Of a DNA stretch of 64,000 nt, positions 2,040-60,890 are shown piece after piece. The position numbers and the translations under genes are program-made. Positions within the stretch are counted from its first letter, which is position 1, and every line of letters starts with the position of its first letter. The stretch is from an uncultured bacterium (GTDB lineage Bacteria; Acidobacteriota; Aminicenantia; UBA2199): the NCBI GenBank assembly GCA_965371805.1, contig CBDUZW010000005.1, positions 28,926 to 92,925 of the forward strand, in the 5' to 3' direction. The notes beneath the pieces are model-generated. The model saw only the letters and a program-made list of their open reading frames with translations. It did not search any database and was not told where the DNA came from.

Positions 2040-4778
2040 TTATTCTAAATCTTTGAACATTTTAATTAAGGCCATTCTATTATCTATATTCAGTTTTTTA
2101 TATATTTTTGAGTTACTATTCCTTATGGTTCCAGAAGATATAAATAATATATCCTCAATCTCTTTATTCGTTTTTCCTTTTAGAATTAAAAACAAGATTT
2201 CCTCTTCTGTTTTAGTTAAATTATTTTTAGAACATATATTTTTAACCCTTTCCTCGAAGCGAATCTTTAATCTGATTTTTTTTATTCTGCTGCGATATAA
2301 AAAAAACATTAATATCAACACCATCGTAAGTACTAATGCTTTAAACCAGACAGTTTCCCAAAATGGAGGAAGTATTATAATCTTAACACTTGTCCCCTCT
2401 TCATTCCAATATCCGTCATCATTTGAACCTTTTACTCTAAAAGTATATTCTCCATGGGATAAATTAGTATAAGTAGCTCTTCGATTTTTATAATCAGTTT
2501 CTATCCAGTTACTATCTAATCCTTCAAGTTTATATTTATACATATTTTTCTCTGGCTGCCGGTAATTTAATGCAGAAAATTCGAAGGTAAAAATATAATC
2601 AGTATACTCCAGAGTAATCTCTTTTGTAAAATTTATATGCTGCTTCAGTTGAAATTGTTTAGAATCAACTACTTTTTTAGCAACGTTGACAGATTTATTG
2701 AACAGTAAAAAATCAGTAATTAAAACCGGTGGAATAAATTTATTATCTACAACTTTTTCCGGATCAAAAACAGTAAAACCTTCTTCCCCTCCAAAATACA
2801 GTCTGCCCAAAGAATCTTTGAATTTTGCACCATCATTAAATGCATTGCCCTGTAGCCCATCCTGTTTATCATAATTGATAAATATGCCTGTTTTCGGATT
2901 AAACTTATTGATCCCATAATTTGTACTTACCCATAGATATCCTTCATTATCTTCCAGTACAGCATGTATAATTTCATTGAGCAAGCCATTTTTTCGTCCA
3001 TAATATTTGAATGTTTTTTTTTCTCGATCAAATTTATTTAATCCGGTATCTGTTCCAATCCATAAATTTTTTCCCCTATCTTCAAAAAGATCGAAAATAT
3101 GATTGCTACTAAGACTCTGAGGATCATTAATTTGATGTTGGAAAGTGGTGAATGTTTCTGTTTTTTTATTATATTTATTAAGTCCGCCACCGACTGTTCC
3201 TATCCAGATTATACCATTAGAATCTTCAAGAACTGACCAGACATAAGGGCCACTGAGACTTTTTGGATTATCCGGGTCAAAATTATAAGAGGTGTATAGA
3301 TCCTTTTTTTGATCAAATTTATAAAGACCATCACCATCAGTTGCAATCCATAGAGTCCTTTTTGTGTCTTCAAAAACTTGAGTAATCCCCCTTGCAGGAA
3401 AATTATCATGATATTGAATTTTATTAAAAATTTCTTTCTTATTATCAAATTTATAAAGACCATTAAAAGCGCCTACCCACAGATCTCCTTTTATATCTCC
3501 ACTAATACTATAAACATAATTATTGTTTATGTTTTTATTATTATTCGGCTGAAATTGATATAGCTTAAATTTCTCTAAATTTAAATCAGTTTTATTAAGA
3601 CCATTAGATGTTCCTATCCATACATTTCCATTTATACCTTTATAAAAAGAACTAACTGATTTACCACTAAGGCTATTGGCACTATCTGCTTTTTGATTAT
3701 ACTTCGAAAAAAGCATTTTTTTTTTATCAAGTATATTTAGTCCTCCACCATATGTTCCAATCCATAAGATTCCTTCTGCATCTTCAAAAATTGAAGCAAT
3801 GGAATTATTACTTAGACTATCAAGGTTGGCAGTTTGGTGTTGATATTTTGTAAATATTCCCGTTTTTCTATCAAATCTATTAAGGCCGCCACCATATGTT
3901 CCGATCCATAAAATGCCCTCTCTATCTTTAAAGACGGATAATACAAAGTTGTTGCTGATGCTTCTGAAATTTTTAGGGTTCGCTTTATAATTGACAAATG
4001 TGCCAGTAGATGTGTTTAACTTACTGAGCCCACCCCCCTTAGTACCAATCCACAAGATACCTTTCGCATCCTCAAAAATAGATAATACAGGATAATACTC
4101 ATTAATCTTATGTTTATAGTGAGTGAATGTCTCTTTATTTTTATCAAATCTATTGAGACCGCCTCGAGTACCAATCCATATATATTCCCTGCCTTCAAAA
4201 ATATCTCCAATTTCGTCATTATTGAGACTATTAGGATTATCAGCACTATGTTTATAATGTATGAACTTTTCCTTTTTTGTATCAAATTTATTAAGACCGC
4301 CGCTAAATGTTCCAATCCATAATATACCGTCTTTATCTACAAGAATTGAGCTGATAAAATTATTACTGAGACTGTTAGGATTATTCTTTTGGTGCCGATA
4401 ACTTAAAAAAGTTTCACTTTTTTTGTCAAATCTATTAAGTCCGCCACCATCTGTTCCAATCCATAGGATACCGTCTTCATCTTCACAGAGGGCAGTAATG
4501 TAGTTTTTTGTTAGACTAGTATTATCATCAGAGTTATGACGATAGATGGTAAACTTATACCCATCATATTTATTTAATCCATCCATTGTTCCAAACCACA
4601 TAAAACCCTGTTTATCCTGAATGATACAGTTAATGTCTACCTGTGATAGACCATGCTCGATTGAAATCCTTTTGAAATAGTTAGTATCTTTTTTTGCGAG
4701 AGAAAAAACATTTATAAAAATAAATATATAAATTATAAAAAATATTTTACTCTGCCTGTTTCCTGCTATATTTATCAT
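2040..4778 (-). CDS. Transmembrane one-component regulator: Reg_prop repeats + Y_Y_Y domain + TM + C-terminal LuxR/GerE-type HTH
   Basis: 912-aa ORF with about 14 repeats of the motif (D)G.LWIGT..GGLN.FD. It has a Y_Y_Y-like segment (LEYTDYIFTFEFSALNYRQPEKNMYKYKLEGLD...GEYTFRVKG), a TM (ALVLTMVLILMFFLY) and a C-terminus TEEEILFLILKGKTNKEIEDILFISSGTIRNSNSKIYKKL (LuxR HTH). There is no kinase domain. Confidence 0.75.
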   Translation of the reverse strand: MINIAGNRQSKIFFIIYIFIFINVFSLAKKDTNYFKRISIEHGLSQVDINCIIQDKQGFMWFGTMDGLNKYDGYKFTIYRHNSDDNTSLTKNYITALCEDEDGILWIGTDGGGLNRFDKKSETFLSYRHQKNNPNSLSNNFISSILVDKDGILWIGTFSGGLNKFDTKKEKFIHYKHSADNPNSLNNDEIGDIFEGREYIWIGTRGGLNRFDKNKETFTHYKHKINEYYPVLSIFEDAKGILWIGTKGGGLSKLNTSTGTFVNYKANPKNFRSISNNFVLSVFKDREGILWIGTYGGGLNRFDRKTGIFTKYQHQTANLDSLSNNSIASIFEDAEGILWIGTYGGGLNILDKKKMLFSKYNQKADSANSLSGKSVSSFYKGINGNVWIGTSNGLNKTDLNLEKFKLYQFQPNNNKNINNNYVYSISGDIKGDLWVGAFNGLYKFDNKKEIFNKIQYHDNFPARGITQVFEDTKRTLWIATDGDGLYKFDQKKDLYTSYNFDPDNPKSLSGPYVWSVLEDSNGIIWIGTVGGGLNKYNKKTETFTTFQHQINDPQSLSSNHIFDLFEDRGKNLWIGTDTGLNKFDREKKTFKYYGRKNGLLNEIIHAVLEDNEGYLWVSTNYGINKFNPKTGIFINYDKQDGLQGNAFNDGAKFKDSLGRLYFGGEEGFTVFDPEKVVDNKFIPPVLITDFLLFNKSVNVAKKVVDSKQFQLKQHINFTKEITLEYTDYIFTFEFSALNYRQPEKNMYKYKLEGLDSNWIETDYKNRRATYTNLSHGEYTFRVKGSNDDGYWNEEGTSVKIIILPPFWETVWFKALVLTMVLILMFFLYRSRIKKIRLKIRFEERVKNICSKNNLTKTEEEILFLILKGKTNKEIEDILFISSGTIRNSNSKIYKKLNIDNRMALIKMFKDLE

Positions 4779-7521: not shown

Positions 7522-8322
7522 TTATTTTTTATCCCAGACTCCGGACCTTAATCCCTCCAGATCAAGAGTTATAAACTTCATTCCCTCTTTTTTACATAAG
7601 TTTAACAGCCGGGATTTAATTTTAAGAATTTTATTAATATTGCCATCTCCAGTCTCAATTCTAATTCCCTCATCTATATATCTGACTCTTACAGGATAGA
7701 CCTCATTATCAACTAGAAAGCCCTCAATTCTGTCAAATTTTCTTATTTGTTTCTCTGAAAGATTTAAATTATAAGGAAATCTTGTTGCAAGGCAAGTTGA
7801 CGATGTAAGGTAATATTCCTCAATGTCCTCTTTTTTTAATAGATTAACTATCTCAGATGAAGTAATTTTTGCATCACTTAATGGTGATATTATTTTTAAT
7901 TCTTCGAGGGCTAAAAGTCCTGGTCTGAACTCATCCAGATCTGAAAAGGTTGTACCATCAAGAACTGCTCCGACTCCCATACTTCTTGCCTTTTCAATAA
8001 TATTATTGAAAATAAAAGATTTGCATAAATAACATCTATTCTCTGGATTTTTGCTGATTTCTTGATTATCCAGAACTTTTAATTCAATTATAATAATATC
8101 CAAATTATATTTTTTTTCAAAATACCCAACTCTTTTTTTATCATTTTCAGCAATAAAATCAGAATTTATAAAAATAATTTTTACATTTTCTTTGCCCAAT
8201 ACTTCTATAGCTGTTTTCATCATAAAGAAGGAATCTTTACCACCTGAAAAAGCGACTACAACTTCGCCAAGGTCTTTTAATATCTTACTCACATCATTGA
8301 TCTTTTTTTTTATATCAGTCAT
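7522..8322 (-). CDS. PP-loop ATP pyrophosphatase of the LarE / TIGR00268 family
   Basis: 266 aa. PP-loop VVAFSGGKDS. RPGL motif. Conserved Cys in STCLATRFPYN. VRVRYIDEGIRIE...TLDLEGLRSG matches the LarE C-terminal half. Confidence 0.65.
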   Translation of the reverse strand: MTDIKKKINDVSKILKDLGEVVVAFSGGKDSFFMMKTAIEVLGKENVKIIFINSDFIAENDKKRVGYFEKKYNLDIIIIELKVLDNQEISKNPENRCYLCKSFIFNNIIEKARSMGVGAVLDGTTFSDLDEFRPGLLALEELKIISPLSDAKITSSEIVNLLKKEDIEEYYLTSSTCLATRFPYNLNLSEKQIRKFDRIEGFLVDNEVYPVRVRYIDEGIRIETGDGNINKILKIKSRLLNLCKKEGMKFITLDLEGLRSGVWDKK

Positions 8323-8396
8323 AATTTATCTCCAAAAATGATTTTAACCTGATATTAAGGATTTTTGCAAATAAATATAACTTCCTGAATTTTTCA

Positions 8397-8565
8397 CCAA
8401 AACCTACTGCAATGCCCGATATGCCCATTCTAACTGTGTAAATTTCAATCGTCTTCATTTCAAAATAGTGAAACTATTCTTCATTCAACTCAATCATTTT
8501 ACTTGTTATAAAGGACATCTCGAGCATTTCGCTACAATTTTGATGAAAACTTCAGAAACGTAGGT
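8397..8565. repeat. Copy A of a ~165-bp diverged direct repeat (copy B at 59694..59860)
   Basis: aaacctactgcaatgcccgatatgcccattctaactgtgtaaatttcaatcgtcttcatttcaaaatagtgaaactatt... aligns with 59694-59860 at roughly 84% identity, about 24 mismatches over about 150 nt, in the same orientation. It sits in the divergent intergenic region upstream of the LarE-like gene. Confidence 0.8.
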
Positions 8566-8602
8566 TTAATAATAACAGTAATTAGTGTATAATTATTCTG
8601 AT

Positions 8603-9106
8603 ATGGAAATAATACCGGATAGAGCTGAATTTAAAAGAGCGGAAGTTGAGAAAATCACAAGTTTATCTGGAAATGTTTTGGATTATTGGGAAGGAGAATT
8701 TTCTGCTTTTTTTCCCAAAAACAAAAATGGAGCAAAGACCTATTTATATAAAGATGTACTAATAATATTACAAATCAAACAATACCTTACAGTTGAAAGA
8801 TTAAATAAAGCTGAAATTAAAGAAAAACTAAAAGAAAATATTGAAATCACAAATAAATTGATTGAGAAAGATACTGAAAAAAATAATTCTTTTAAAAAAA
8901 AACCCCCTGAAGAAATCAAGCAAAAAACAATACATCCAATTGAATCCACTCCAAATATCAAAAATATTAAGCAAAGAAACCCTATACAAGAGCCAAAAGA
9001 GGAAAAGAAAAAACAAAAAAATAATAAAAACCAGCTTAGTATCATCAAACAGGACTTACACAAAATATTGACAATTCTTAAAAATAGTGATAGAAAAGGT
9101 AATTGA
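8603..9106 (+). CDS. MerR-superfamily HTH protein with K/E-rich low-complexity C-terminus
   Basis: The ORF track gives 8585..9106 with a GTG start; the first ATG is at 8603. [16 protein letters not shown] ... [30 protein letters not shown] fits the MerR HTH plus dimerization-helix pattern. Weak assignment. Confidence 0.4.
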
Positions 9107-9107
9107 T

Positions 9108-9184
9108 CGGGGCGTAGCGCAGTCTGGTAGCGCACACGCTTGGGGTGTGTGAGGTCGGTGGTTCGAATCCACTCGTCCCGACCA
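9108..9184 (+). tRNA. tRNA-Pro: tRNA-Pro (anticodon GGG in the best fold; UGG in an alternative register)
   Basis: CGGGGCGTAGCGCAGTCTGGTAGCGCACACGCTTGGGGTGTGTGAGGTCGGTGGTTCGAATCCACTCGTCCCGACCA. 7-bp acceptor stem, U8, D-arm GCGC/GCGC with GG in the loop, anticodon stem CACGC/GTGTG with loop TTGGGGT, T-arm GGTGG-TTCGAAT-CCACT, discriminator A, encoded CCA. Confidence 0.85.
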
Positions 9185-14770: not shown

Positions 14771-15562
14771 ATGAGAAATTTTAAGACAGTGATCTATTCA
14801 TTTGTTTTAGTTATTCTGGGAGTTATGTTCTCAACAAATTTACCTGGAGAATCTAAAGTAAAAAAATCAAGTCCTGATCAGACTATAAAGCAGCTTAAAG
14901 CTGGAAATGAAAGGTTTGTTGAAGGAAAAAGTATACATCCACATACAAATTCTGCCCGTTTAAAACAGGCCGGGACAGAAAACCAGGGAGATCATGCTTA
15001 TGCAACTGTTATTACCTGTTCAGATTCCAGAGTACCGGTAGAGCTTTTATTTGATGCAGGCGTTATGGATATTTTTGTTATCAGGGTTGCCGGCAATGTC
15101 TGTGATGTAGATGAGATAGGATCAATAGAATATGGGCTAGCCCATGTAAATACTCCAGTACTTGTTGTTCTAGGCCACACTCAGTGTGGAGCTGTAACTG
15201 CTGTTACTCATGCTGTTCATGGAACTGGACATGCTTTAGAAAGAAATATTCCTCCTCTAGTAGATAATATTGAGCCTGCAGTACGCCGTGCGATATCTGC
15301 TCATCCTGATGTCAAAGGGAATAATATTATTCCATATGCCATAGAAGAAAATGTCTGGCAGGGTATTGAGGATCTGTTTATGGAGAGTCCTTCGACTAGA
15401 AATCTGGTAAAACAGGGCAAAACTAAGGTTGTTGGAGCTATTTATGATGTCGGCACAGGAAAGGTACATTGGCTGTCAGAATTAACAGTTCAAAACATAC
15501 TTAATAAAGTAAACTCCTCATCAAAAAGAGCAATGAATGCAATGGCAAAAAGTGGCCATTAG
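14771..15562 (+). CDS. Secreted beta-class carbonic anhydrase
   Basis: Signal peptide. Beta-CA zinc-ligand motifs CSDSRV and GHTQCGAV. 263 aa. About 88% identical to the N-terminal domain of the next ORF, a tandem duplicate. Confidence 0.75.
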   Translation: MRNFKTVIYSFVLVILGVMFSTNLPGESKVKKSSPDQTIKQLKAGNERFVEGKSIHPHTNSARLKQAGTENQGDHAYATVITCSDSRVPVELLFDAGVMDIFVIRVAGNVCDVDEIGSIEYGLAHVNTPVLVVLGHTQCGAVTAVTHAVHGTGHALERNIPPLVDNIEPAVRRAISAHPDVKGNNIIPYAIEENVWQGIEDLFMESPSTRNLVKQGKTKVVGAIYDVGTGKVHWLSELTVQNILNKVNSSSKRAMNAMAKSGH

Positions 15563-15580: not shown

Positions 15581-18331
15581 ATGAAGAGTATAAATAAAAA
15601 TATATTTTTAGTTATTATGATTTTATTATTTAGTTCAACAATCTTACAACTTTTTGGGGAGAGTACATCAAAAAAACCAAGTCCGGATGAAATAATCAGA
15701 ATGTTAAAGGATGGAAACAACAGATTTGCTACAGACAAAGGAATCTACCCCAATATAAGTACAGCCCGTCTAAGGCAGGCAGGTACTGAAAACCAGGGAA
15801 ATCATGCATATGCGACTGTAATCACATGTTCAGATTCCAGGGTACCTGTAGAGCTTCTATTTGATGCAGGAGTTATGGATATTTTTGTTATCCGTGTTGC
15901 AGGTAATGTATGCGATGTGGACGAAGTCGGATCGATCGAATATGGCCTTGCACATGTAAATACTCCCGTCCTTGTTGTTCTTGGTCATAAACAGTGTGGG
16001 GATGTGACTGCTGTAACTCATGCTGTTTTTGGTACAGGACATGCACTTGAACGTAATATACCACCACTGGTAGACAATATCGAACCGGCAGTCCGCCGTG
16101 CAATCTCCGCTCACTCAGATATTAAAGGGGATAATATTATTCCTTATGCAATTGTAGAGAATGTCTGGCAGGGTATAGATGACCTTTTTATGAAAAGCCC
16201 TTCAACCAGAAATCTTGTCCAGAGTGGAAAAGTCAAGGTAGTAGGAGCGATTTATGATGTTGGGACCGGAAAGGTGGAGTGGCTTCCACAATCGAAAACT
16301 GATCAAATCCTGAGAAAGGTAAATTTGTCCTCAGGACGTGCGATTGAACCAATGGCAGGATCTGAACATAAGTCAGGAAAGGATAAAACTACTTCCCATG
16401 AAGTAAAAAGTGAACATGAAACAAAAAATGTAAGTCAGGGTACAACAAGTGCTCATAAGGAAAGCAGTTATATAAAAAAAGATATATTAAGCAAATCGAA
16501 AAGAGCCCAGAGCAGAGATTCCGGTTACTCTGCAATCACCTGGCTATTTATTTTTCTTGGAATAACATTTGCCGGAGGAATCTTATTATTTATATTTAAA
16601 GGAGGCGAGAATATGAGTATAAAAAATTTAAAAGTAGGCACCAAGATCTTTGGCATGGTATTGATAATCTTAATTTTCTTAGTAATAACTACAATAGTAA
16701 GTATAGGAAAGTTGGGTTCTATTGGCGAAGAGATAAAACAGATTGCACATGAGGATATACCTTTAATTGAGTCTATAACAAAGGTTACAATGCATCAATT
16801 GGAGCAGTCGGTCTTGTTTGAAAGGGCACTGCGGTTTGGTGAGACCAAAAACAAAGAGGGTCTCAAAGAGGCAGAAAAAGAATTCGAAAAAATTTCAAGT
16901 TTAGTTGATGAAGAAATTAAAGAAGCCGAAAAGGTGGCGGAAGAGGCAGTAAAGAAATCCTTACATCCTGAAGAAAAAAAAGAATTCGAAGATATTTCAG
17001 ATCAACTTAAGGTAATCGAAAAGGAACATGGCAATTATGAGAGACATGTTGCAGAAGTATTTGAATTTCTCAACCGGGGAGAGCTTCATAAGGCAGAGGC
17101 AAAATCTGAAAATATTGAAAAGGAAGAGAAACAGTTGAATGAGGAATTGGGGAAACTCCTAAATGAAATTGAAAAATTTACCGAAAATTCTACATTAACC
17201 GCTGAAAAAGATGAAAAAGCTGCAGTAAAGTTTATTCTAATTCTAGGTTTCTTTGCAGTAATAATTGGTTCATTGCTGGGATTTTTTATAACCAGAATGA
17301 TCACTGTTCCAATAAGAAAAGCTATGAATATAGCAGATGACCTTGCCAAAGGTGATCTGAGTATGGAAATAGTGGAAATGGGAAAAGATGAGACGGGACA
17401 ATTAATGGCATCCCTAAAACTTATGGTTGAAAATTTGAGGGGCATAGTGTTTGAAATACAGACAGCCTCTGAAAATGTTGCTTCGGGCAGTGAAGAGTTG
17501 AGTGCATCGGCTCAATCTTTAGCCGAAGGTTCAACAGAACAGGCTTCATCAGCAGAGGAGATATCCTCTTCAATGGAAGAGATGGGAGCAAATATACAAC
17601 AGAATACAGATAACGCAAACCAGACTGAAAAACTATCAACAAAAGCATCTGCAAATGCAAAGGATAGCGGGGAAGCAGTAACCGAAGCAACTTCAGCAAT
17701 GAAAGAGATAGCCGGCAAGATAAATATAATTCAGGAGATAGCCAGACAGACCAATCTGCTTGCCTTGAATGCAGCAATTGAAGCTGCAAGAGCAGGGGAA
17801 CACGGAAAGGGATTTGCAGTTGTTGCCTCAGAAGTCAGAAAACTGGCTGAAAGAAGTCAGAGTGCTGCTGAAGAGATAACCGAACTTACCAAGAATAGTC
17901 TCGGAGTTGCGGAGAAAGCTGGAGAAATGTTAAATATCCTTGTTCCCGATATTGGCAAAACAGCTGATCTGGTTTCAGAAATAACTGCATCAAGTACCGA
18001 ACAGAATCAGGGAGCGGGTCAGATCGTAAAGGCCATAAATGAGCTTGATAAAGTTGTGCAGGCTAATGCAGGTTCGTCAGAGGAGATGGCATCAACATCA
18101 GAGGAACTTTCATCCCAGGCACAGCAGTTACAATCAACAATATCATTTTTTAATATTGGCAATGAAAGATCACGAGCACAAACCTCTTTCCAGCAGAAAA
18201 GAGCCCCTCAAACTCCAGCAAGAGCAACTATGGTTCAACCTGCAAAGCAGCTGAAACCAAAAACAGGTGGAATGAAACTTGACATGGGATCAGGCACAGA
18301 CAAAGAAGATGGTGATTTTGAGAGATTTTAA
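15581..18331 (+). CDS. Beta-carbonic anhydrase domain fused in frame to a methyl-accepting chemotaxis protein (signal peptide-CA-TM | TM-4HB-like-TM-HAMP-MCP signalling domain). Alternatively two genes with no intervening stop: CA 15581..~16610 and MCP from ATG 16614
   Basis: N-terminal 250 aa duplicates the upstream CA ([14 protein letters not shown]). Then a linker, [23 protein letters not shown], and an internal AAAGGAGG-N6-ATG at 16614 giving the MCP-like start [21 protein letters not shown] ~190-aa helical periplasmic domain, TM, HAMP ([17 protein letters not shown]...), and the canonical MCP core [41 protein letters not shown]. Confidence 0.7.
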
Positions 18332-40363: not shown

Positions 40364-42940
40364 ATGATAAAACAACAAAACAAAATCTATCCATTTACAA
40401 TTTTATCTATCCTCTTTATCCTTTTCTCAAATCTGCCTGCTCAAAATAATACAATAAATTTCCAACATCTATCTTTGGAAGACGGATTGTCGCATAGCAC
40501 TATAAATTGCATTTTTCAAGATAGCAGGGGATTTTTATGGTTTGGAACAGATGATGGTTTAAACAGATATGACGGTTATAATTTTAAAATATTCTTAAAT
40601 GATCCTGAAAAACCTGGAACAATCTCCAGTAATCGCATTAGAGGAATATGCGAAGATGAGGATGGGAATCTCTGGATTGGGACATTTGGTGGATTAAATA
40701 CATTTAATATTAGAACAGGGCGCTTTGCCTCCTATACATTTCATCCTGATATAGAATCAAGACAAAATATAATATGGTCAATGGCTATAAATGATGGATT
40801 CCTATGGGTCGGGACTGAATCCGGATTGATAAAGTTTAATACTAAATCAAAAAAATATAATAACTATAAATTAAATTCAACTCAGTCCAAATTTCAAAGG
40901 AAAACTTTCATAACCATAGTATACATAGATAACTCAAAAAAAATCTGGATTGGAACTAAACATAACGGTTTATATACATTTAAAGAAACAACAAATTCAA
41001 TTGTTCCTTTTAAATATAAACATTCAAAAAACCCGAGTTTCAGAAGTATTAGAAATCTATTCAAAGACCAATCCGGCATATTATGGATCGGCACAGAGTA
41101 TGGAGGTTTAATCAAATATAACAGTCAAAATCAAGAACCTACTTTTTACAAACATATCCCCGGGATTAAGGGATCTATAAGCAGTAATGACATACAATCG
41201 ATATTTGGAACAAAATCAGGAGATCTGTGGATTGGGACCAATGCAAATGGCTTAAACAAGTATAATTCTGCAACAAACAGTTTCACCCTGTACGAACATG
41301 ATCCCAAAAATGCAAACAGCATTAGTCATAACAGTATTCTTTCAATGTATGAGGACAATTCAGGGGTTTTATGGATTGGAACTTATGCAGGAGGGATAAA
41401 CACACTTAACAAAAGTAAAAAAAGATTCGATGTCTTAAAAAATGAACCTGGGAATCCAATCAGCCTCAGTAACAGTACAGTATTTTCAGTTTATGAAGAG
41501 TCTAATGGAATAATCTGGATAGGCACTATTACAGGTTTAAACAGATATGATAGTAAGAATAATCTTTTTAAAGTATATAGTCACGACAAAAACAACCCTA
41601 AAAGTATTAGTCATAATGTTGCAAGAGCTATTTATAAAGATGATAAAGGAAATTTATGGATAGGAACTGATAATGGACTAAATAAATTTAATAGAGAGGA
41701 TGAGACATTTTCTATCTATAGAAACGCCATTACCATTAAGAACTATTCATCCAATTGGCAGAACATAATCCGTTCAATTATTGCTGATAATTCAGGAAAA
41801 CTTTGGATAGGAACACAAAATGGGATCTGTACATTTGATGAAAAAAAAGAACAATTTACATATTATAGATATGATGAAAATAATCAAAACAGTCTTTCAT
41901 CAAATACAGTCAGAGTATTATTAAATGACAGAGACGGTCTTATATGGATAGGCACTGAGAATGGATTAAATAAATTTAATCCAGAAACAAAAGAATTTTT
42001 CATTTATAAACACAACCCCAAAAACCCGCATAGCATTAGTAGTGATAATATCTATAGTATCTTAGAAGATAAAAAAGGTCTGATTTGGATTGGAACAAAA
42101 AAAGGATTAAATGCTTTAAACAGAAAAACAGGTCTATTTACAAACTATACAGAACATGACGGATTGGGAAATGATATTGTATACTGCATTCTTGAATCTA
42201 ACGACAATAATTTATGGCTCAGTACTGATAAAGGCATAACAAAGGCATATAATAGCTTAAAAAACATTGACTCATCAGTAAAAGATCAAAAATTGAAATT
42301 TAGAAATTTTGATATAAAAGATGGTGTGCAGGGACATGAGTTTAATTCAGGCGCCTCATTCAAAAGTAATAAGGGAACTTTGTACTTTGGAGGAATGAAT
42401 GGATTAAATATATTTGACCCGGAAAAAATAATGACTGATAACAGCTATATTCCGCCTGTAGTCTTAACTGAGTTCAGATTATTTTCTGAAAAAATATCCA
42501 TACACTCAAGGATCGATGGAAAAACCATATTAAGTAAGCCAATAGAATTGACAGAAAAAATAGTACTTCCTTATAATGCAAACTATATCTCCTTTAAATT
42601 CACAGCATTAGATTTCACTTGCACAAAAAACAATAAATTTGCCTATATGATGAAAGGATTAAGCAATGAATGGCACTACCTTGGCACAAAAAACGAACTT
42701 GATTTTCATCTTTCTCCAGGAACATTTATTTTAAACATAAAAGGTTCAAATAGTGACCATGTCTGGAATGAAAATGGAGTATCGATAACAATCATTATAA
42801 ATCCCCCTTTTTGGACTACAATATGGTTTAGAATAGCCGTTTCCATGTTTGTCTTTTTAGTGATATTTTCACTATACAGAGTCAGAATATACAATATTAA
42901 AAAAAAAATATCCAACTCAGCAACCATAATGAACAATTAA
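40364..42940 (+). CDS. Hybrid sensor, part 1: signal-Reg_prop repeats-Y_Y_Y-TM; terminated prematurely after an A10 homopolymer (42899..42908)
   Basis: GLSHSTINCIFQDSRGFLWFGTDDGLNRYDG and 13 or more further propeller repeats. Y_Y_Y segment and TM TIWFRIAVSMFVFLVIF. The stop falls 11 codons after the A10 tract. Confidence 0.7.
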   Translation: MIKQQNKIYPFTILSILFILFSNLPAQNNTINFQHLSLEDGLSHSTINCIFQDSRGFLWFGTDDGLNRYDGYNFKIFLNDPEKPGTISSNRIRGICEDEDGNLWIGTFGGLNTFNIRTGRFASYTFHPDIESRQNIIWSMAINDGFLWVGTESGLIKFNTKSKKYNNYKLNSTQSKFQRKTFITIVYIDNSKKIWIGTKHNGLYTFKETTNSIVPFKYKHSKNPSFRSIRNLFKDQSGILWIGTEYGGLIKYNSQNQEPTFYKHIPGIKGSISSNDIQSIFGTKSGDLWIGTNANGLNKYNSATNSFTLYEHDPKNANSISHNSILSMYEDNSGVLWIGTYAGGINTLNKSKKRFDVLKNEPGNPISLSNSTVFSVYEESNGIIWIGTITGLNRYDSKNNLFKVYSHDKNNPKSISHNVARAIYKDDKGNLWIGTDNGLNKFNREDETFSIYRNAITIKNYSSNWQNIIRSIIADNSGKLWIGTQNGICTFDEKKEQFTYYRYDENNQNSLSSNTVRVLLNDRDGLIWIGTENGLNKFNPETKEFFIYKHNPKNPHSISSDNIYSILEDKKGLIWIGTKKGLNALNRKTGLFTNYTEHDGLGNDIVYCILESNDNNLWLSTDKGITKAYNSLKNIDSSVKDQKLKFRNFDIKDGVQGHEFNSGASFKSNKGTLYFGGMNGLNIFDPEKIMTDNSYIPPVVLTEFRLFSEKISIHSRIDGKTILSKPIELTEKIVLPYNANYISFKFTALDFTCTKNNKFAYMMKGLSNEWHYLGTKNELDFHLSPGTFILNIKGSNSDHVWNENGVSITIIINPPFWTTIWFRIAVSMFVFLVIFSLYRVRIYNIKKKISNSATIMNN

Positions 42941-51786: not shown

Positions 51787-53433
51787 CTATCTGTTAATTG
51801 TGAACCTTTTACTGCATGAATTATCCCGTTCATTAATTTCCTCAATAGTATTGTCAGGATCTACAGTCACAATCATTCTATACCTTTTTCCTTTTTTAAA
51901 TATACATGAAAATGATCTTGTATCAAATAAAATTCCACCTTGTTTTTTAATTGTAAGTTTGATGTTTAGATGATAAGTCTGACCACCTGTTATTAATGGG
52001 ATAATTGAATCGTGTTCCTTTTCACAAAATACATCGCCATCAACAGACTTGATCTCAAGTTTTACTTTAACGTTTCGTAAACTTGCACTTGAATCAACTC
52101 CATAACTACCACTAAACTTATATTTTCTGCCAATTTTGGTAACTCTTACCGAAAAACATGTAATTGTAAGGTTTTTCCAAGAAACAGAAATAGTTTTTGT
52201 ATTATTGCTCTCATCTGATTCGGGTATTCTTAAATTTGAATCTATCATACATGAGATAGTCTTATTGACCCTTCCTTCTAGAAAAAGACTTAATCCAATT
52301 AATGATACATCTTTAATAACACCTTTGCTCAGGTTTAGCCATTTAGTGACTCGTTTTACGGGAGAAACAGCCATAAATTCAATATTTCCTCTAAAGTTTG
52401 AATTATTGCTTCTTACTCTGGCATGAAGCCTTCCATTATCTGCAAAAATTTCTACTATTTCCAGATCTGTGACTGTAGAAGCACCTTGCTGGGGACTAAC
52501 ATCAGTTGTCTTAATCTCAAAGTCTCTGCTTCTACCGGAAATTTCTCCCTGTTCAACTCTAATAAAGTAATTTCCAGATTCAAAATCTGAAGGGATTTGC
52601 CAGTCAAATCCAGATGCGTTATACCTTATACTTTCTATAATAGTAATTCCACCTGATCCATCGGCCTTTCTTAAGTTGACTCTTACATTTCCGGTAATTC
52701 CTACTGCCCGCCATCTTCCTGATATGGTGGCACCCCTGGAACTTCTCAGAACTTGAGAATGTTGGACAGTAATTGACGACGGAAGTGATGCAGCTATACT
52801 AAAAATGGAAGAATCGTCTCCAACAAGATTGTCTATTGTTTTGACTCTGATTGTATAACTCCCATTGGCAACACTATTTGGGACATTCCAGCTAAAACTT
52901 CCATCATTTGTAGTACTATTTGAAATATCTAAAATCTTTGTTGTCCCTGCTGGATTATACAAACGGATCTTTACTGATGCATCTTGAGGTCCAGATTTTG
53001 TCCATTGGATGTTATATGAGCCCCCTTTTGCTACAGTTTCACTTAATACTGGTTTTGTTACTGTAATTGTAGCAGCTGGAGATGGAACATCTGAAATTGT
53101 AAAAACTCCACTATCATCCCAAGTTACATTGTCAAGGGTTTTTACTCTAACAACATAATTGCCATTTGCTACACTATTTGGGACCGGCCAAGAAAAACTT
53201 CCATTATTTGCTGTACTATTTGTAATATCTAAAATCTTTATTGTACCTGCTGTATTATACAAGCGGATCTTTACTGATGCATCTTGAGATCCAGATTTTG
53301 TCCATTGTATAGTATAAGGACTCCCTTTTACTACAGTTTCACCTGATGCAGGTTTTGTAACTGTTATAGTAGCAGCTGACAACATTCCCATAGTTATAAT
53401 TATAACTAACATAAATAATAATAATCTTTTCAT
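51787..53433 (-). CDS. Secreted protein with three tandem ~90-aa Ig-like (Kre9/KNH-like) repeats and a C-terminal CARDB-like domain
   Basis: Likely start MKRLLLFMLVIIITMG with a GGAGGG RBS. The tracked ORF extends to a TTG at 53484. Repeats ATITVTKP.SGETV.KGS.Y.IQWTKSG.QDASVKIRLYN.AGT.KILDI.NST.N.GSFSW.VPNSVANG.Y..RVKT. Confidence 0.45.
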   Translation of the reverse strand: MKRLLLFMLVIIITMGMLSAATITVTKPASGETVVKGSPYTIQWTKSGSQDASVKIRLYNTAGTIKILDITNSTANNGSFSWPVPNSVANGNYVVRVKTLDNVTWDDSGVFTISDVPSPAATITVTKPVLSETVAKGGSYNIQWTKSGPQDASVKIRLYNPAGTTKILDISNSTTNDGSFSWNVPNSVANGSYTIRVKTIDNLVGDDSSIFSIAASLPSSITVQHSQVLRSSRGATISGRWRAVGITGNVRVNLRKADGSGGITIIESIRYNASGFDWQIPSDFESGNYFIRVEQGEISGRSRDFEIKTTDVSPQQGASTVTDLEIVEIFADNGRLHARVRSNNSNFRGNIEFMAVSPVKRVTKWLNLSKGVIKDVSLIGLSLFLEGRVNKTISCMIDSNLRIPESDESNNTKTISVSWKNLTITCFSVRVTKIGRKYKFSGSYGVDSSASLRNVKVKLEIKSVDGDVFCEKEHDSIIPLITGGQTYHLNIKLTIKKQGGILFDTRSFSCIFKKGKRYRMIVTVDPDNTIEEINERDNSCSKRFTINR

Positions 53434-53708: not shown

Positions 53709-56700
53709 TTATGTAGAATAATTGTCTTTAACAGGAAGAAGGACATAAAAAATGCTTCCTTTGGGAAAATTGTTTAGATAACCGATTGTTCCATCATGTG
53801 CTTCTATAATAAGCCGGGCTACTGCCAGGCCCAGACCGGTACCCTTAATTGAGGAAATCTGGTCTTTTTTTAATTGATAATATTTATCAAAAAGGTATTG
53901 GACACTTGCTTTATCAACTCCTGATCCTTCATCAATCACTGAAAACTCTTGAAAAACAGCATTATCTTTGATGGTCTTATTTAATCTTAGAGTAATCCAA
54001 CCATTTTTTGGAGAATATTTTAAGGCATTTGTCAACAGGTTATTAACTAATTGGGTCATACGCATCTGATCCAGTAAAATAGGCTGCAGATTTTCAAATT
54101 CAGTCTTGATTTGGAGGTTTCTATTTTTTAAAAGGGGTATCATCAAAGATACAGAATCTTCAATAATGCTCTGAAAAGGAATTATCTCTTTAGATAGAAT
54201 CATTTTTCCTGATTCAAATTTAAAAACATTTAAAATATCATCAATTATTTTCAACATTATGTCTGCTGATTTTGTAATAACATTATTTATTTTTTTGATA
54301 TTCTCCTTATCAGGTTGTTCATTTAAAACACTTGAATATCCCACTATATTATTAAGAGGACTTCCAAGATCATGTACGAGCATAGCAACAAAATCTTTCT
54401 TTAACTTGAGCTCACTTTTTAAATGATCTCTTTTCAATCTTGATTTTATTACCCTTATTCTTATTCTATAAAAAGTAAATATAATAAATAAAAATGCTAA
54501 GACTAATATTCCCTTAAACCATATTCTTTGCCAGAAAGGAGGTGTAATAGTGATAAGAAGTTTCGCCCCTTTCTTATTCCAGATGCCATCATTATTGGTC
54601 CCCAAAACCTTAAAAACATATTCTCCCGGATCCAGATTTGTATAAGAGACAAATCTACGAGCACCTGAATTTATCCACTCAGAGTCAAGACCCTCTAATT
54701 GATAGGAATATTTGCTTTTCCCGGAAATACGGTAATCGAGAGCAGCGAATTTAAAAGAAAAAAAATTTTCTTTATATGATAATACAATTTTATTTGTATA
54801 ATTTATTGGGTTTTTTAAGAATAAACTGGATTCATGATCAACAGGTTTATTAAATAATTGAAATTCAGTAATCAAGATTTCAGGTTTATATTGGTTATCT
54901 ACAATTTCTTCAGGTTTAAATATATTAAACCCATTGATGCCGCCAAATAACATTTCATTGTTTTTCCTTTTAAAACAAGCTCCCTGATTAAATTCATTAC
55001 TCTGCAAACCATCCCCTTGATCATAATTTTTAAATGTTTCAGATTTTGGATCAAATTTTGACAAGCCCAGATTGGTACTGAACCATAGAAGGCCCTTTTC
55101 ATCCTCCAATAATCCATAAATTACTTCATTGCTCATTCCATTTTTACTGTTAAATCTAACAAATTTTTTTAATTCTCTATCAAATTTGTTTAATCCCCCA
55201 TAAGTTCCAATCCATAAAGAGCCTGATTTATCTTCATAAATAGTAGTGATAATATTATTACTTATACTATTTTTGTCACCTTGAATATTTTTAAAATGAG
55301 TGAATTTATTTTTTTGAACATCAAACTTATTTAATCCTCCTCCGGATGTCCCAACCCAGAAATTGTTTAGTTTATCATTGTATATGGATAATACATAATT
55401 ATGACTTAAACTTGTCGGATCTCCAGGAATGTTTTTATAATGTGTGAACTTTTTTAAGATTGGATCAAATTTGTTTAAACCTCCAAGTTCTGTTCCAATC
55501 CAGATAATGCCTTCTTTATCTTCATATAATTTCCAAATTAAATTATCACTTAAACTATCCGGATCATTACTATTGGATAGAAAATGTACAAATTGGTTCG
55601 TTTCTTTGTTTAACATATTTAATCCACCACCATAAGTACCAACCCATAAAACGCCTTTTCTATCTTCTAATATTGATACCACAGCATTATTGTTTAAACT
55701 ATATGGATCTTTTGGATCATGAAGATATTGCTTATATTTATTTTTATATCTATCAAATCGATTTAAACCGCCCAGATAAGTGCCTATCCATATTATTTTT
55801 GAACGATCTTCATAAAGAGCCCATATATAATTATCACTAAGTTCATTTTCACCATCTGATTCATTGCAAAAATGTAAAAATTTCTTCCTATTTAAATCTA
55901 ATCTATTTACCCCTCCACCAAATGTCCCTATCCAAAGGATACCAGAATCATCCTCAACAATCGATAAGATTGAATTATGACTAATACTTCTTGAGTTTTT
56001 TATCGAATTTTTGAAATGTGTAAATGTATTAGTTTTGCGATTATATCTGTTCAATCCATCTCTATATGTACCAACCCATAGATCTCCATCTGTATCTTCA
56101 TAGATTGTTGAAACACTATTATTGCTTAAACTTTTACTATCAATTGGATTATTTATAAATTTAATAAACTGATCTGTTTTGGAATTATATAGATTGACAC
56201 CTCCCAATGCAGTACCAATCCAAAGTGATTTATGACTATCCATAAATACAGTTTGGATATAATTATCAGATAAGCTTTCAAGATTATCTTTTTGACTCTT
56301 ATAAACATCAAATATATTGTTTTTCTGATTATATCTATTTAATCCACCACCATAAGTTCCAACCCAAAGGTTTCCAAATTTATCTTCACAAATTGAAGTA
56401 ACATAGTTATGACTCAAACTTCTGGAATTGAGAGGATCATTTTTATTATGTGAAAAGTCACCTCTTATTTTTGAAAATTTATTCACCCCACCATTCCGGG
56501 TTCCAATCCACAATGTATTTGATGAGTCTCCATATAGACAGGTAATAAAATTACCACTTATGCTCCTTGGATTACCAGAAATATTTTTATAATGTTCAAA
56601 TCTCTCATTTTGAGGGTCATATCTATTAAGTCCCCCACCATGTGTTCCTATCCATATTATCCCATCTTTATCTTCAAAAATTGCCAGGATATAATTATTA

Positions 56701-57065
56701 CTAATGCTATTAATATCATTTAAATTATTTTTAAATATTTTAAATGAGTATCCATCATATCTGTTCAAACCGTCCTCAGTTCCAAACCACATAAATCCCT
56801 GTTTATCCTGTAATACACAAAATACAGAATTTTGTGAAAGACCATTATCAATTGACAGACTATCAAATTTTATATTATTTTCCCCTTGAACAGTACAGAT
56901 AAAACCTACAAAAAATATTACAATCAAAAAAAAAAGTACTCTATCTTTTTTTCTAAGCATACAAATATAATACCTTAAAAAAAACAAATTGTTAACACTT
57001 AAATTAAAAATATTGCAAAATCCCTCTGAATTCCACCTACTACATAAATGTAAACAAAGTGACAA
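53709..57065 (-). CDS. Reg_prop/Y_Y_Y transmembrane sensor histidine kinase (HisKA + HATPase_c, no receiver)
   Basis: Likely start MLRKKDRVLFFLIVIFFVGF. About 14 propeller repeats. Y_Y_Y. TM ILVLAFLFIIFTFY. H-box LVHDLGSPLNNI. G-box SVIDEGSGVD...GTGLGLAV. Confidence 0.75.
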   Translation of the reverse strand: MSLCLHLCSRWNSEGFCNIFNLSVNNLFFLRYYICMLRKKDRVLFFLIVIFFVGFICTVQGENNIKFDSLSIDNGLSQNSVFCVLQDKQGFMWFGTEDGLNRYDGYSFKIFKNNLNDINSISNNYILAIFEDKDGIIWIGTHGGGLNRYDPQNERFEHYKNISGNPRSISGNFITCLYGDSSNTLWIGTRNGGVNKFSKIRGDFSHNKNDPLNSRSLSHNYVTSICEDKFGNLWVGTYGGGLNRYNQKNNIFDVYKSQKDNLESLSDNYIQTVFMDSHKSLWIGTALGGVNLYNSKTDQFIKFINNPIDSKSLSNNSVSTIYEDTDGDLWVGTYRDGLNRYNRKTNTFTHFKNSIKNSRSISHNSILSIVEDDSGILWIGTFGGGVNRLDLNRKKFLHFCNESDGENELSDNYIWALYEDRSKIIWIGTYLGGLNRFDRYKNKYKQYLHDPKDPYSLNNNAVVSILEDRKGVLWVGTYGGGLNMLNKETNQFVHFLSNSNDPDSLSDNLIWKLYEDKEGIIWIGTELGGLNKFDPILKKFTHYKNIPGDPTSLSHNYVLSIYNDKLNNFWVGTSGGGLNKFDVQKNKFTHFKNIQGDKNSISNNIITTIYEDKSGSLWIGTYGGLNKFDRELKKFVRFNSKNGMSNEVIYGLLEDEKGLLWFSTNLGLSKFDPKSETFKNYDQGDGLQSNEFNQGACFKRKNNEMLFGGINGFNIFKPEEIVDNQYKPEILITEFQLFNKPVDHESSLFLKNPINYTNKIVLSYKENFFSFKFAALDYRISGKSKYSYQLEGLDSEWINSGARRFVSYTNLDPGEYVFKVLGTNNDGIWNKKGAKLLITITPPFWQRIWFKGILVLAFLFIIFTFYRIRIRVIKSRLKRDHLKSELKLKKDFVAMLVHDLGSPLNNIVGYSSVLNEQPDKENIKKINNVITKSADIMLKIIDDILNVFKFESGKMILSKEIIPFQSIIEDSVSLMIPLLKNRNLQIKTEFENLQPILLDQMRMTQLVNNLLTNALKYSPKNGWITLRLNKTIKDNAVFQEFSVIDEGSGVDKASVQYLFDKYYQLKKDQISSIKGTGLGLAVARLIIEAHDGTIGYLNNFPKGSIFYVLLPVKDNYST

Positions 57066-59117: not shown

Positions 59118-59510
59118 CTACTTATTTACTAATGCTTTAACAACATTTGTAAGCTGATCAAATGAGTATGGTTTTTCAATATAACTGACATTCTTATATT
59201 TTAAAATTTCATCTATGCTATCATCTTTTTTTGTGCCGGAAGCAATTAAGACTTTTATATCCTCATTATGTTTTTTTATCTCAGTTAGAACTTCAATACC
59301 TGATTTTCTTGGCATCATAAGGTCAAGAATTATAAAACTCAATTCTTCTTTATTTTCAATAAAAACTCTAATACCTTCCTCTCCATCCTCAGCATGGATA
59401 ACATCAAATCCCATTTCCGAAAGAATAGCTGCAGCGACTTTTCTTATAATTGGTTCATCATCAACAACTAGTGCAAGTTCTTTATAATTATGTTTGTGAT
59501 TTTTTTTCAT
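59118..59510 (-). CDS. Stand-alone CheY-like response-regulator receiver
   Basis: LALVVDDEPIIRKVAAAILSEMGFDVIHAEDGEEG...IILDLMMPRKSGIEVL...VLIASG; 130 aa. Confidence 0.8.
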   Translation of the reverse strand: MKKNHKHNYKELALVVDDEPIIRKVAAAILSEMGFDVIHAEDGEEGIRVFIENKEELSFIILDLMMPRKSGIEVLTEIKKHNEDIKVLIASGTKKDDSIDEILKYKNVSYIEKPYSFDQLTNVVKALVNK

Positions 59511-59693
59511 ATTAATTTTTCTTTTAAAGTAACCAACCTCTTTTCTGATTTTTTCTTTTCATTCTTCCAAAAAAGCAAAAAGAGAAAGGAAATAAAATAA
59601 AGAAGAATAAGAAAAAACCTTTTTCTTTTCATTATTTTATTATAACAAAAAAAAAAAAAAGTACAATTATAATATATACCTAAATTTTTAATC

Positions 59694-59860
59694 AAAACCT
59701 ACTGCAATACTCAATATGCCCATTCTAACTGCATAAACCTCAATCATCTTCATTTCAAAATAGTGAAACTATTATTCATTCGATTTAATCGCTTTACTTG
59801 TTATAACGATCATCTTGAGCATTTCGTGACAATTTTGATGAAAATTTTAGGATATAAGAA
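59694..59860. repeat. Copy B of the ~165-bp diverged direct repeat (copy A at 8397..8565)
   Basis: See copy A. Preceded by an A15 tract at 59651-59665. Confidence 0.8.
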
Positions 59861-59906: not shown

Positions 59907-60890
59907 TTAACTGAGCCGCTTATTATTTTTCAGCCATGGAAGTTGATCTAAGTCTACATTTCCACCAGAAAGAATAATTCCTGTTTTCTTGTCTTTCACA
60001 TCTATTGCACTAGATAAAATAGCAGCTAAAGGGACCGCTGAAGAAGGCTCAACTATGATCTTCATCCTCTCCCATATCAATCTCATTGCTTCAATTATGG
60101 AATCCTCATCAACTCTGACAATACTGTCAAAATAGTGTCTTATTATATGAAAGGTTTTATCTCCCAGTGAGGTTAAAAGACCATCAGCTATAGTTTTTGG
60201 GTTTACAGAAGGAAATATTTTGCCCTCATAAAATGATCTGTAGGCGTCATCTGCCATAGCCGGCTCAGCAGCAATAACCTCTGTTTCAGGAAACATTGAT
60301 TTAACAATAATTCCGGTTCCACTTGCTAATCCTCCTCCCCCTACAGGAACAATTACTTTATCAAGCTTTCCCACCTCATTTAATAACTCCATACCTGCAG
60401 TCCCCTGACCGCTGATGATCTGGTAATTATTATAGGGATGGATAGATGTTGCTCCTGTTTTATTTACTATCTCTTTTAAAGTATCCTCTCGCGCTTTTAA
60501 AGTTGGTTTACAAAATGTAATTATTGCGCCATAACCCTCAACTGCCCTCTTTTTTATTTCCGGTGCTGTTTCCGGCATAGCTATATAGGCTTTTACGCCT
60601 CTGTATCTTGCAGCCAATGCTAGAGCTGCTGCATGATTGCCGGAGGAATGTGTAGCAACACCTTTTTTGATTTCTTCTTTACTTAGAGAAAACACTGCAT
60701 TTACAGCACCTCTTATCTTAAATGCTCCAACCTTCTGAAAATTCTCACATTTAAAAAAGATATTTCCACCTGTAATTTTATTTATTGCCGAACTTGTTAA
60801 TACAGGTGTATTGTGAATATATGGTTTAATTAGACTCGCTGCTTTTATAATGTCATCTTGACTTGGAATTTTCATTTTGTTTATTTCCAT
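59907..60890 (-). CDS. PLP-dependent threonine/serine dehydratase-family enzyme (fold-type II, no ACT domain)
   Basis: FKCENFQKVGAFKIRGAVNAV. Gly-rich loop VPVGGGGLASG. 327 aa. Confidence 0.7.
   Translation of the reverse strand: MEINKMKIPSQDDIIKAASLIKPYIHNTPVLTSSAINKITGGNIFFKCENFQKVGAFKIRGAVNAVFSLSKEEIKKGVATHSSGNHAAALALAARYRGVKAYIAMPETAPEIKKRAVEGYGAIITFCKPTLKAREDTLKEIVNKTGATSIHPYNNYQIISGQGTAGMELLNEVGKLDKVIVPVGGGGLASGTGIIVKSMFPETEVIAAEPAMADDAYRSFYEGKIFPSVNPKTIADGLLTSLGDKTFHIIRHYFDSIVRVDEDSIIEAMRLIWERMKIIVEPSSAVPLAAILSSAIDVKDKKTGIILSGGNVDLDQLPWLKNNKRLS

Follow-up and report, generated by a model that had tools for sequence, protein, structure and literature searches.

Within the 64,000 nucleotides analysed here, referred to as the window, a diverged sequence of less than 200 bp is present twice in the same orientation, and the question that this raises is whether it is a gene for a structured RNA, a regulatory leader shared by two downstream genes, or a mobile element. 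The initial annotation had left these three possibilities standing side by side, the last of them as an old MITE-like element, and had proposed searches of Rfam and of related genomes for further copies. It is the MITE that is upheld, by the ends of the element, its 5 bp duplications, its copies elsewhere, the empty sites in relatives, the nesting of one copy in another and a parent in the IS1380 family, while the leader and the host ncRNA gene are not. The repeats are very probably a MITE that has no transposase of its own and shares its ends with an IS1380-family element, which would move it.

That the direct repeat is real is seen from a repeat search of the window, which pairs 8370-8555 with 59665-59850 at 83% identity over 186 nt, approximately 51.3 kb apart. 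In pairwise alignment the homology between the two copies, here called A and B, starts and ends abruptly. The limits given at first were off by about 10-15 nt, and between the true ends of the element, at 8384-8556 and 59679-59851, 147 of 173 positions (85%) are identical, so that the diverged pair of same-orientation copies about 51 kb apart, as originally described, is sustained over 173 bp. A family HMM run over the window finds copies A and B only, both on the minus strand, which is taken here as the sense strand. Both are indeed intergenic and lie upstream, in the minus-strand sense, of a minus-strand ORF, which is LarE-like for copy A and has a receiver domain for copy B. The core that had been called perfectly conserved is identical in A and B over 23 nt, and this 23 nt sequence occurs twice in the window and in none of 100 shuffles of it. 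There is nothing special about it, however, as the apex has two versions across the family; a 27 nt run of matches is not improbable at 85% identity (about 0.2, by our own estimate).

Copy A is 173 bp in length (8384..8556, minus strand), scores 160 bits against the family HMM over model positions 2-173, and has sharp homology edges in the alignment of 29 copies. Its 5' terminal inverted repeat, TCTGAAGTTTTCATCAAAAT (8537..8556, minus strand), is recognised from the alignment of copies and is of the IRL type, matching the left ends of the IS1380-family elements L030-L036. Its 3' terminal inverted repeat, ATTTTGGTGAAAAATTCAGG (8384..8403, minus strand), is placed by the same alignment and by comparison with IS ends, and is of the IRR type. 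The flanking 5-mers, ACGTT upstream (8557..8561, minus strand) and AAGTT downstream (8379..8383, minus strand), agree at 4 of 5 positions and are read as a degenerate target-site duplication. The 8 bp pair aaacctac/gtaggttt, which the initial annotation took to be the terminal inverted ends of copy A, is not at the termini, since 8401-8408 is internal and 8561-8568 is in the flank; the two halves, one inside the 3' arm of the MITE and one in the flanking DNA, match by chance. Nor are terminal inverted ends confined to copy A, as had been thought, the real ones being about 20 nt long and present in both copies.

The spacer that holds copy A is between a PP-loop/LarE-like ORF (7522-8322, minus strand) and a MerR-type ORF (8585-9106, plus strand). 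In the loci L001 and L002, whose LarE-like proteins are the nearest ones available for comparison (72% and 68% identity), the gene order SurE, MerR-like, LarE-like, sulfhydrylase is kept and the syntenic spacer between the MerR-like and LarE-like genes is only 92-118 nt, with no trace of the element. Compared with these, the window has approximately 190 extra nt between ATTAAACC and ATTTGCAA. The insertion is just upstream of a promoter-like sequence of the LarE-like gene, TTGCAA-18-TAAAAT, and this site is conserved in the spacer of the relatives, which would mean that the LarE-like gene probably retains its own promoter.

In the case of copy B, also 173 bp (59679..59851, minus strand; 154 bits, model positions 1-173), the 5' terminal inverted repeat CCTAAAATTTTCATCAAAAT (59832..59851, minus strand) and the 3' terminal inverted repeat GTTTTGATTAAAAATTTAGG (59679..59698, minus strand) are likewise placed from the alignment of copies and comparison with IS ends, with the last 17 nt of the latter found unchanged at the right end of the IS1380-family elements L030-L033. 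The target-site duplication is exact here, with TATAT upstream (59852..59856, minus strand) matching TATAT downstream (59674..59678, minus strand) at 5 of 5 positions. The spacer is between a PALP-enzyme ORF (59907-60890, minus strand) and the receiver-domain ORF (59118-59510, minus strand; PF00072). For this site there is a much closer relative, L037, with 88-90% nucleotide identity on either side, and at the corresponding position it reads GTACAATTATTATTTATAATAAAAG..., the element being absent and the target present once where the window has TATAT on both sides. A promoter-like site lies across the junction between copy B and its flank (59666..59695, minus strand), with a -35 sequence TTGATT in the 3' end of the MITE and, after an 18 nt spacer, TATAAT in the flanking DNA. 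The site is no more than a match to the consensus, at 10 of 12 positions, and is directed toward the ORFs that end at 59118. A scan for terminators around both copies found none.

The comparison of L037 (2569-5903) with the window (59118-59695) shows a further difference, in that L037 has a gene for a 792-aa hybrid histidine kinase and a gene for a 328-aa protein, and the window is without about 2.9 kb of this region. The ORF at 59118-59510 (minus strand), previously described as CheY-like, looks like the leftover receiver domain of the 792-aa hybrid histidine kinase, and of the 328-aa protein, the window ORF at 59507-59695 retains no more than the N-terminus (MKRKRFFL...). The edge of the deletion is approximately 100 nt from copy B.

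Beyond the window, at least 24 further unique copies are present on separate contigs of the metagenome Ga0256845 and in the MAG CAYOTE01. A search of the GTDB representative genomes for exact matches to the 21 nt apex gave 3 loci, all in CAYOTE01, and a two-block pattern that avoids the apex gave 23 contigs, all from Ga0256845, several of which are identical to the CAYOTE01 loci. In the metagenome copies the two blocks, TTATAACAAGT and ATTGCAGTAG, do not vary, but this is only because the search pattern required both. Against viral contigs the two-block pattern had 0 matches. Additional diverged or truncated copies are found in the metagenome loci by the family HMM. The search for further copies in related genomes has thus yielded a multi-copy family with duplications and unrelated gene contexts. 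The Ga0256845 host is related to the organism of the window, with a similar GC content of 32-33% and 75% protein identity over one overlapping gene fragment; the window host is at approximately 33% GC and its nearest named protein relatives are from Aminicenantes/Acidobacteriota MAGs.

When 29 occurrences are aligned, homology is sharply limited to the stretch between CCTGAAATTTTCATC... and ...GATTAAAATTTTAGG, and the flanks are unrelated. The first and last homologous bases across these occurrences are such that the element starts exactly CCTGAAATTTTCATCAAAATTG and ends exactly GATTTTGATTAAAATTTTAGG. Its terminal inverted repeats are approximately 20 bp, CCTGAAATTTTCATCAAAAT...ATTTTGATTAAAATTTTAGG on the minus strand of the window, with 19 of 20 positions paired when G·T is counted. 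Each of the 26 unique copies is 172-176 bp long, and there is no transposase gene, the internal ORFs being of 21-38 codons only and neither conserved nor coding-like. Of 25 unique copies, 10 have the same 5 bp on both sides and 5 others have flanks that agree at 4 of 5 positions, where offset controls give 0.4% and 4%, respectively. The duplicated 5-mers are AT-rich, including TTAAA, TATTA, TTATA, TATAT, GATAA, and others. By this same comparison of flanking 5-mers, about 10 of the 25 copies are without a recognisable duplication.

One copy has inserted into another, at L010:183-355, with the duplication AGAAT. The nested arrangement (L010 136-484) explains why L006 (1-144) seems to open with a tandem partial 3' arm. 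At two other loci, L024 (4295-4316) and L028 (1492-1508), the start of the MITE 5' end (12-14 nt) recurs directly after the 3' end and the 5 bp duplication, giving a 17 nt direct repeat made up of the duplication and the start of the terminal repeat, and an end-to-end junction with a 5 nt spacer. These junctions may be the remnant of a tandem dimer or of an insertion beside a solo end. Beside these two copies with a second terminus there are ordinary genes only and no transposase.

Of the roughly 26 copies, 4 have a tRNA gene at a distance of approximately 100 nt or less (L004 1919-2074, L006 5417-5489, L016 1754-1905, and L020 1838-1910), and copy A of the window is 550 nt from the tRNA at 9108-9181. 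This proximity is apparently above chance, the rough expectation being about 1, and suggests that the flanks of tRNA genes are tolerated or preferred as targets by the MITE.

The ends of the MITE are shared with IS1380-family elements, found at L019 and L030-L036. At L019 a copy of the MITE (623-795) is inside a transposase gene, with the duplication TTAAA, and removal of the element together with one TTAAA leaves an uninterrupted frame of 440 aa. The repaired frame matches the NCBIfam model NF033539, 'IS1380 family transposase', at 184.2 bits (cutoff 180) and Pfam PF13701 at 2.4e-25. The right end of this IS, ...TTGATTAAAATTTTAGG, is approximately 160 nt past the stop codon and is identical to the 3' end of the MITE. 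The transposase gene itself (L019 139-1692) has a frameshift in a poly-A run near its start and is some 70 aa shorter internally than relatives of 510 aa, and is therefore a dead copy. When the IS1380 transposase was sought by tblastn in the 64 kb window and all of the loci, L019 gave the only match, with none in the window. Intact relatives of the transposase, of approximately 510 aa and 65-84% identical, are present on short contigs and carry PF13701. On the left the intact IS begins CCTGA(A/T)TTTTCATCAAAGTTG..., and on the right it ends ...GTTGATTAAAA(A)TTT(C/A)AGG. By type, the 5' end of the MITE is a left end of the IS (..TTTTCATCAAA..) and the 3' end a right end (..TTGATTAAAA..), which would mean that the sense strand of the MITE is the strand that codes for the transposase in the IS. 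Internally the MITE has no similarity to the IS and it is therefore the ends alone that connect the two. On the short metagenomic contigs of the fetched loci, the copies of the IS have no clear 5 bp duplications of their own. In L033 (1869-1913; GCA_003704735.1, a contig of 1982 nt), an IS right end is joined to a left end via TATTT (...TTTAGG-TATTT-CCCTGA...), as would be expected of a circular or tandem form, although it could be an artefact of repeat assembly.

The features seen in the repeat are those of a MITE, with small size, terminal inverted repeats, a fixed 5 bp duplication, dispersed copies that differ in presence and absence, and termini shared with an autonomous element. Derivation from the IS1380 family is indicated by the candidate parent transposase, which belongs to that family, and by a 5 bp duplication like that of ISEcp1. 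The element would have retained only the ends of approximately 20 bp that a transposase recognises, and the transposase would be supplied in trans by an IS1380-family IS with the same ends. This enzyme would excise or copy the element and insert it into AT-rich intergenic DNA, where a staggered cut of the target, followed by repair, would leave a 5 bp direct repeat on each side. The presence of a nested copy and of a cleanly interrupted gene gives indirect support to mobilization in trans by what is a putative partner. To our knowledge, no mechanism of transposition has been established for the IS1380 family. Copies A and B are probably inert resident insertions, and any effect on the host is likely to be limited to the transcription of neighbouring genes.

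The repeat has one further property, which is that it folds on one strand better than on the other. The minus strand of copy A forms one long imperfect hairpin at -56.3 kcal/mol (z = -6.1) and that of copy B one at -41.5 kcal/mol (z = -3.55), compared with -31.5 and -22.9 kcal/mol for the respective plus strands. In all 26 unique copies the sense-strand fold is the better (mean -47.6 versus -29.2 kcal/mol), with 5-11 G·U pairs versus 0-4, and for copy A the asymmetry is also seen with DNA parameters (-26.5 versus -16.6). The consensus rod has 55 pairs, with 95.1% of cells paired and 13 pairs showing double, compensatory changes. At column pair 61/119 there are 11 copies with A-U and 11 with G-C; at column pair 58/122 the metagenome copies have U-A, and copies A and B both have A-U. 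The five measures of the rod are all above each of 500 shuffles and every slid control (34-50% paired), although a palindromic transposon gives the same signal and, as the copies are related by descent, the shuffle control overstates the significance. Within the rod there are 188 G·U cells against 15 A·C cells, and this excess, like the compensatory changes, is found in variants that copies have in common. Among variants private to one copy, there are 9 G·U, 10 A·C, and 39 other mismatches, so that no bias towards pairing is seen. The fact that private changes ignore pairing is read here as meaning that the resident copies are not constrained and are not RNAs with a function for the host.

It was the rod that first brought to mind a 6S-like RNA, an idea that was dropped once multiple copies with target-site duplications appeared. 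More generally, the two copies might be paralogous genes for a host small RNA, such as a 6S-like rod, acting in trans, and the strand-specific fold of about 175 nt in both copies (z of -6.1 and -3.55) and the two compensatory differences between the window and the metagenome copies would fit this. Against it, there are dozens of copies per genome with terminal inverted repeats and target-site duplications, the element is also seen within another copy and within a transposase gene, and both positions in the window are empty in relatives, which makes this explanation very unlikely. Rfam at the gathering score, applied to the window and 20 related loci, returns tRNAs only (in the window, 9108-9181), with no family overlapping any copy, and in E-value mode the best match to either copy is a plant miRNA-precursor model, whose 22.5 bits fall far short of its gathering score of 230. 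The structured ncRNA of the initial annotation, as a host gene, thus has no Rfam match and no conserved position. Less likely still is a cis-regulatory leader or riboswitch shared by the downstream LarE-like and receiver-domain genes, for which it can be said that both window copies are upstream of a gene on the same strand. Across the family there is no such preference, as the 22 copies with two neighbours are in 12 divergent, 2 convergent, and, among tandem contexts, 3 sense and 5 antisense positions. The neighbouring genes are unrelated, with none in common, the orthologues of these same two genes in relatives are without the element, Rfam has no match, and at copy A the promoter-like site that is conserved with relatives is downstream of the insertion.

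The chances of a small protein or type I toxin being encoded are as slight as those of a leader. The candidate is an ORF of 21 codons, MK(T/M)IE..RMG..IAVGF(D/Y), that is open with the same stop in copy B and 11 metagenome or MAG copies. In copy A it has the same start, the shared stop is lost and the frame continues into the flank. A difference of 1 nt makes the start ATG-CAG-TGA in the other subfamily (12 copies), and a further 2 copies lack the ATG, which leaves the ORF broken in 14 of 26. Variable sites are at codon positions 1, 2, and 3 in the numbers 10, 12, and 6, and there is therefore no excess at third positions. Copies A and B differ from each other by 2 synonymous and 6 non-synonymous changes, and no Shine-Dalgarno sequence can be read before the ATG. 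This ORF and the one on the opposite strand were rejected as genes, being neither conserved nor coding-like. The view taken at the outset, that substitutions are not concentrated at third codon positions and that a conserved small protein is unlikely, is in agreement with these counts. A MITE mobilized by an IS1380-family element remains the preferred reading for both copies.

Whether the hairpin of such a MITE does anything is a separate matter. Its body may also be functional, in that the sense RNA or single-stranded DNA must fold into the rod for propagation or regulation, for instance as a transposition intermediate, as a processed small RNA, or as an RNA that would pair with the transcript of the parent IS at its end. 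This is suggested by the advantage of the sense-strand fold in 26 of 26 copies, also with DNA parameters for copy A, by 95.1% pairing with 13 compensatory pairs that 0 of 500 shuffles reach, by 188 G·U against 15 A·C, and by the correspondence of the MITE sense strand to the transposase-coding strand of the parent IS. There is also a precedent in bcr1, a mobile repeat with 5 bp direct repeats and compensatory changes at the RNA level (PMC3184786). Against it, changes private to single copies have no pairing bias, there is no bias in orientation to host transcription (tandem contexts being 3 sense and 5 antisense), template-switch correction of a quasipalindrome yields compensatory changes without selection, and strand-biased mutation could add to the G·U excess. 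On balance, a function for the hairpin is considered doubtful. Our reading of the pairing is that transposing lineages were constrained to keep a hairpin on one strand. The hairpin may come from an RNA, from a single-stranded DNA stage, from template-switch correction together with strand-biased mutation, or from a structured ancestor. Simple cut-and-paste of a duplex element does not require selection for a hairpin on one strand, and the fold is left unexplained by it. It may tentatively be proposed, as something improbable though well short of negligible, that the family is propagated or controlled via a full-length hairpin of the transposase-coding strand, with pairing selected, and G·U or G·T tolerated, in transposing lineages and not in residents. 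Were this true, it would point to an IS1380-family element passing through a stage as single-stranded RNA or DNA, and a real constraint on the hairpin would offer a handle on how such elements move.

The Correia element has a duplication of TA, as opposed to 5 bp in the MITE described here, and TIMEs carry Tn3-type inverted repeats of 38 bp beginning GGGG. The features by which a MITE is defined, among them the capacity to fold into a long stem-loop (PMC3184786), are all present in the repeat. The bacterial MITEs known as Correia or nemis elements of Neisseria, ERIC, and RUP resemble the present element in being under 200 bp, without transposase, and multi-copy and intergenic, with terminal inverted repeats, flanking direct repeats and a long stem-loop fold (PMC3184786), but they differ from it in sequence, termini and host. 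Similar in size is bcr1 of the Bacillus cereus group, which is approximately 155-170 bp, has 5 bp flanking direct repeats and a distribution that is not conserved between relatives, and in which compensatory changes keep the fold and structural stability varies between copies (PMC3184786). The window MITE differs in being a single rod with a clear IS parent by its termini. The Tn3-derived TIMEs are also non-autonomous, with duplications of 5 or 6 bp and AT-rich targets (PMC4133298), whereas the termini of the window MITE are approximately 20 nt, begin CCTGAAA and match IS1380-family ends. ISEcp1, of the IS1380 family, makes AT-rich direct repeats of 5 bp, and has CCTAGATTCTACGT as its IRL, the left end starting CCTAGA (PMC2887853, PMC6061673). 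ISEcp1 and its IS1380-family relatives share with the window element the 5 bp AT-rich duplication, a start of CCT(A/G)(A/G)A and an end of ...TTTAGG (PMC6061673, PMC2887853), and they differ from it in that the window element is 173 bp, has no transposase ORF and has an unrelated interior. In a literature search of incomplete coverage, no published account of a MITE with an IS1380-family origin came to light.

For annotation, the consequence is that both stretches should be masked as a mobile repeat and not entered as an ncRNA or leader, and the family consensus offers a means of marking at least 25 further copies in related uncultured bacteria of AT-rich composition. As the evidence stands, the finding is a routine one for mobile elements, tying a MITE to the IS1380 family, members of which, such as ISEcp1, matter in the spread of resistance genes.

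There are other repeats in the window. The ORFs at 2040-4778 (minus strand), 40364-42940 (plus strand), and 53709-57065 (minus strand) contain periodic repeats of 144 nt (48 aa) that cross-match on both strands, the first of these ORFs encoding a two-component regulator propeller / Y_Y_Y / LuxR-type protein. Two more pairs of direct repeats (D6 and D7), of approximately 280-300 nt and 75-80% identity, are present at 14845-15144 and 15655-15954, and at 52800-53078 and 53100-53378, and are probably inside or between adjacent paralogous ORFs.
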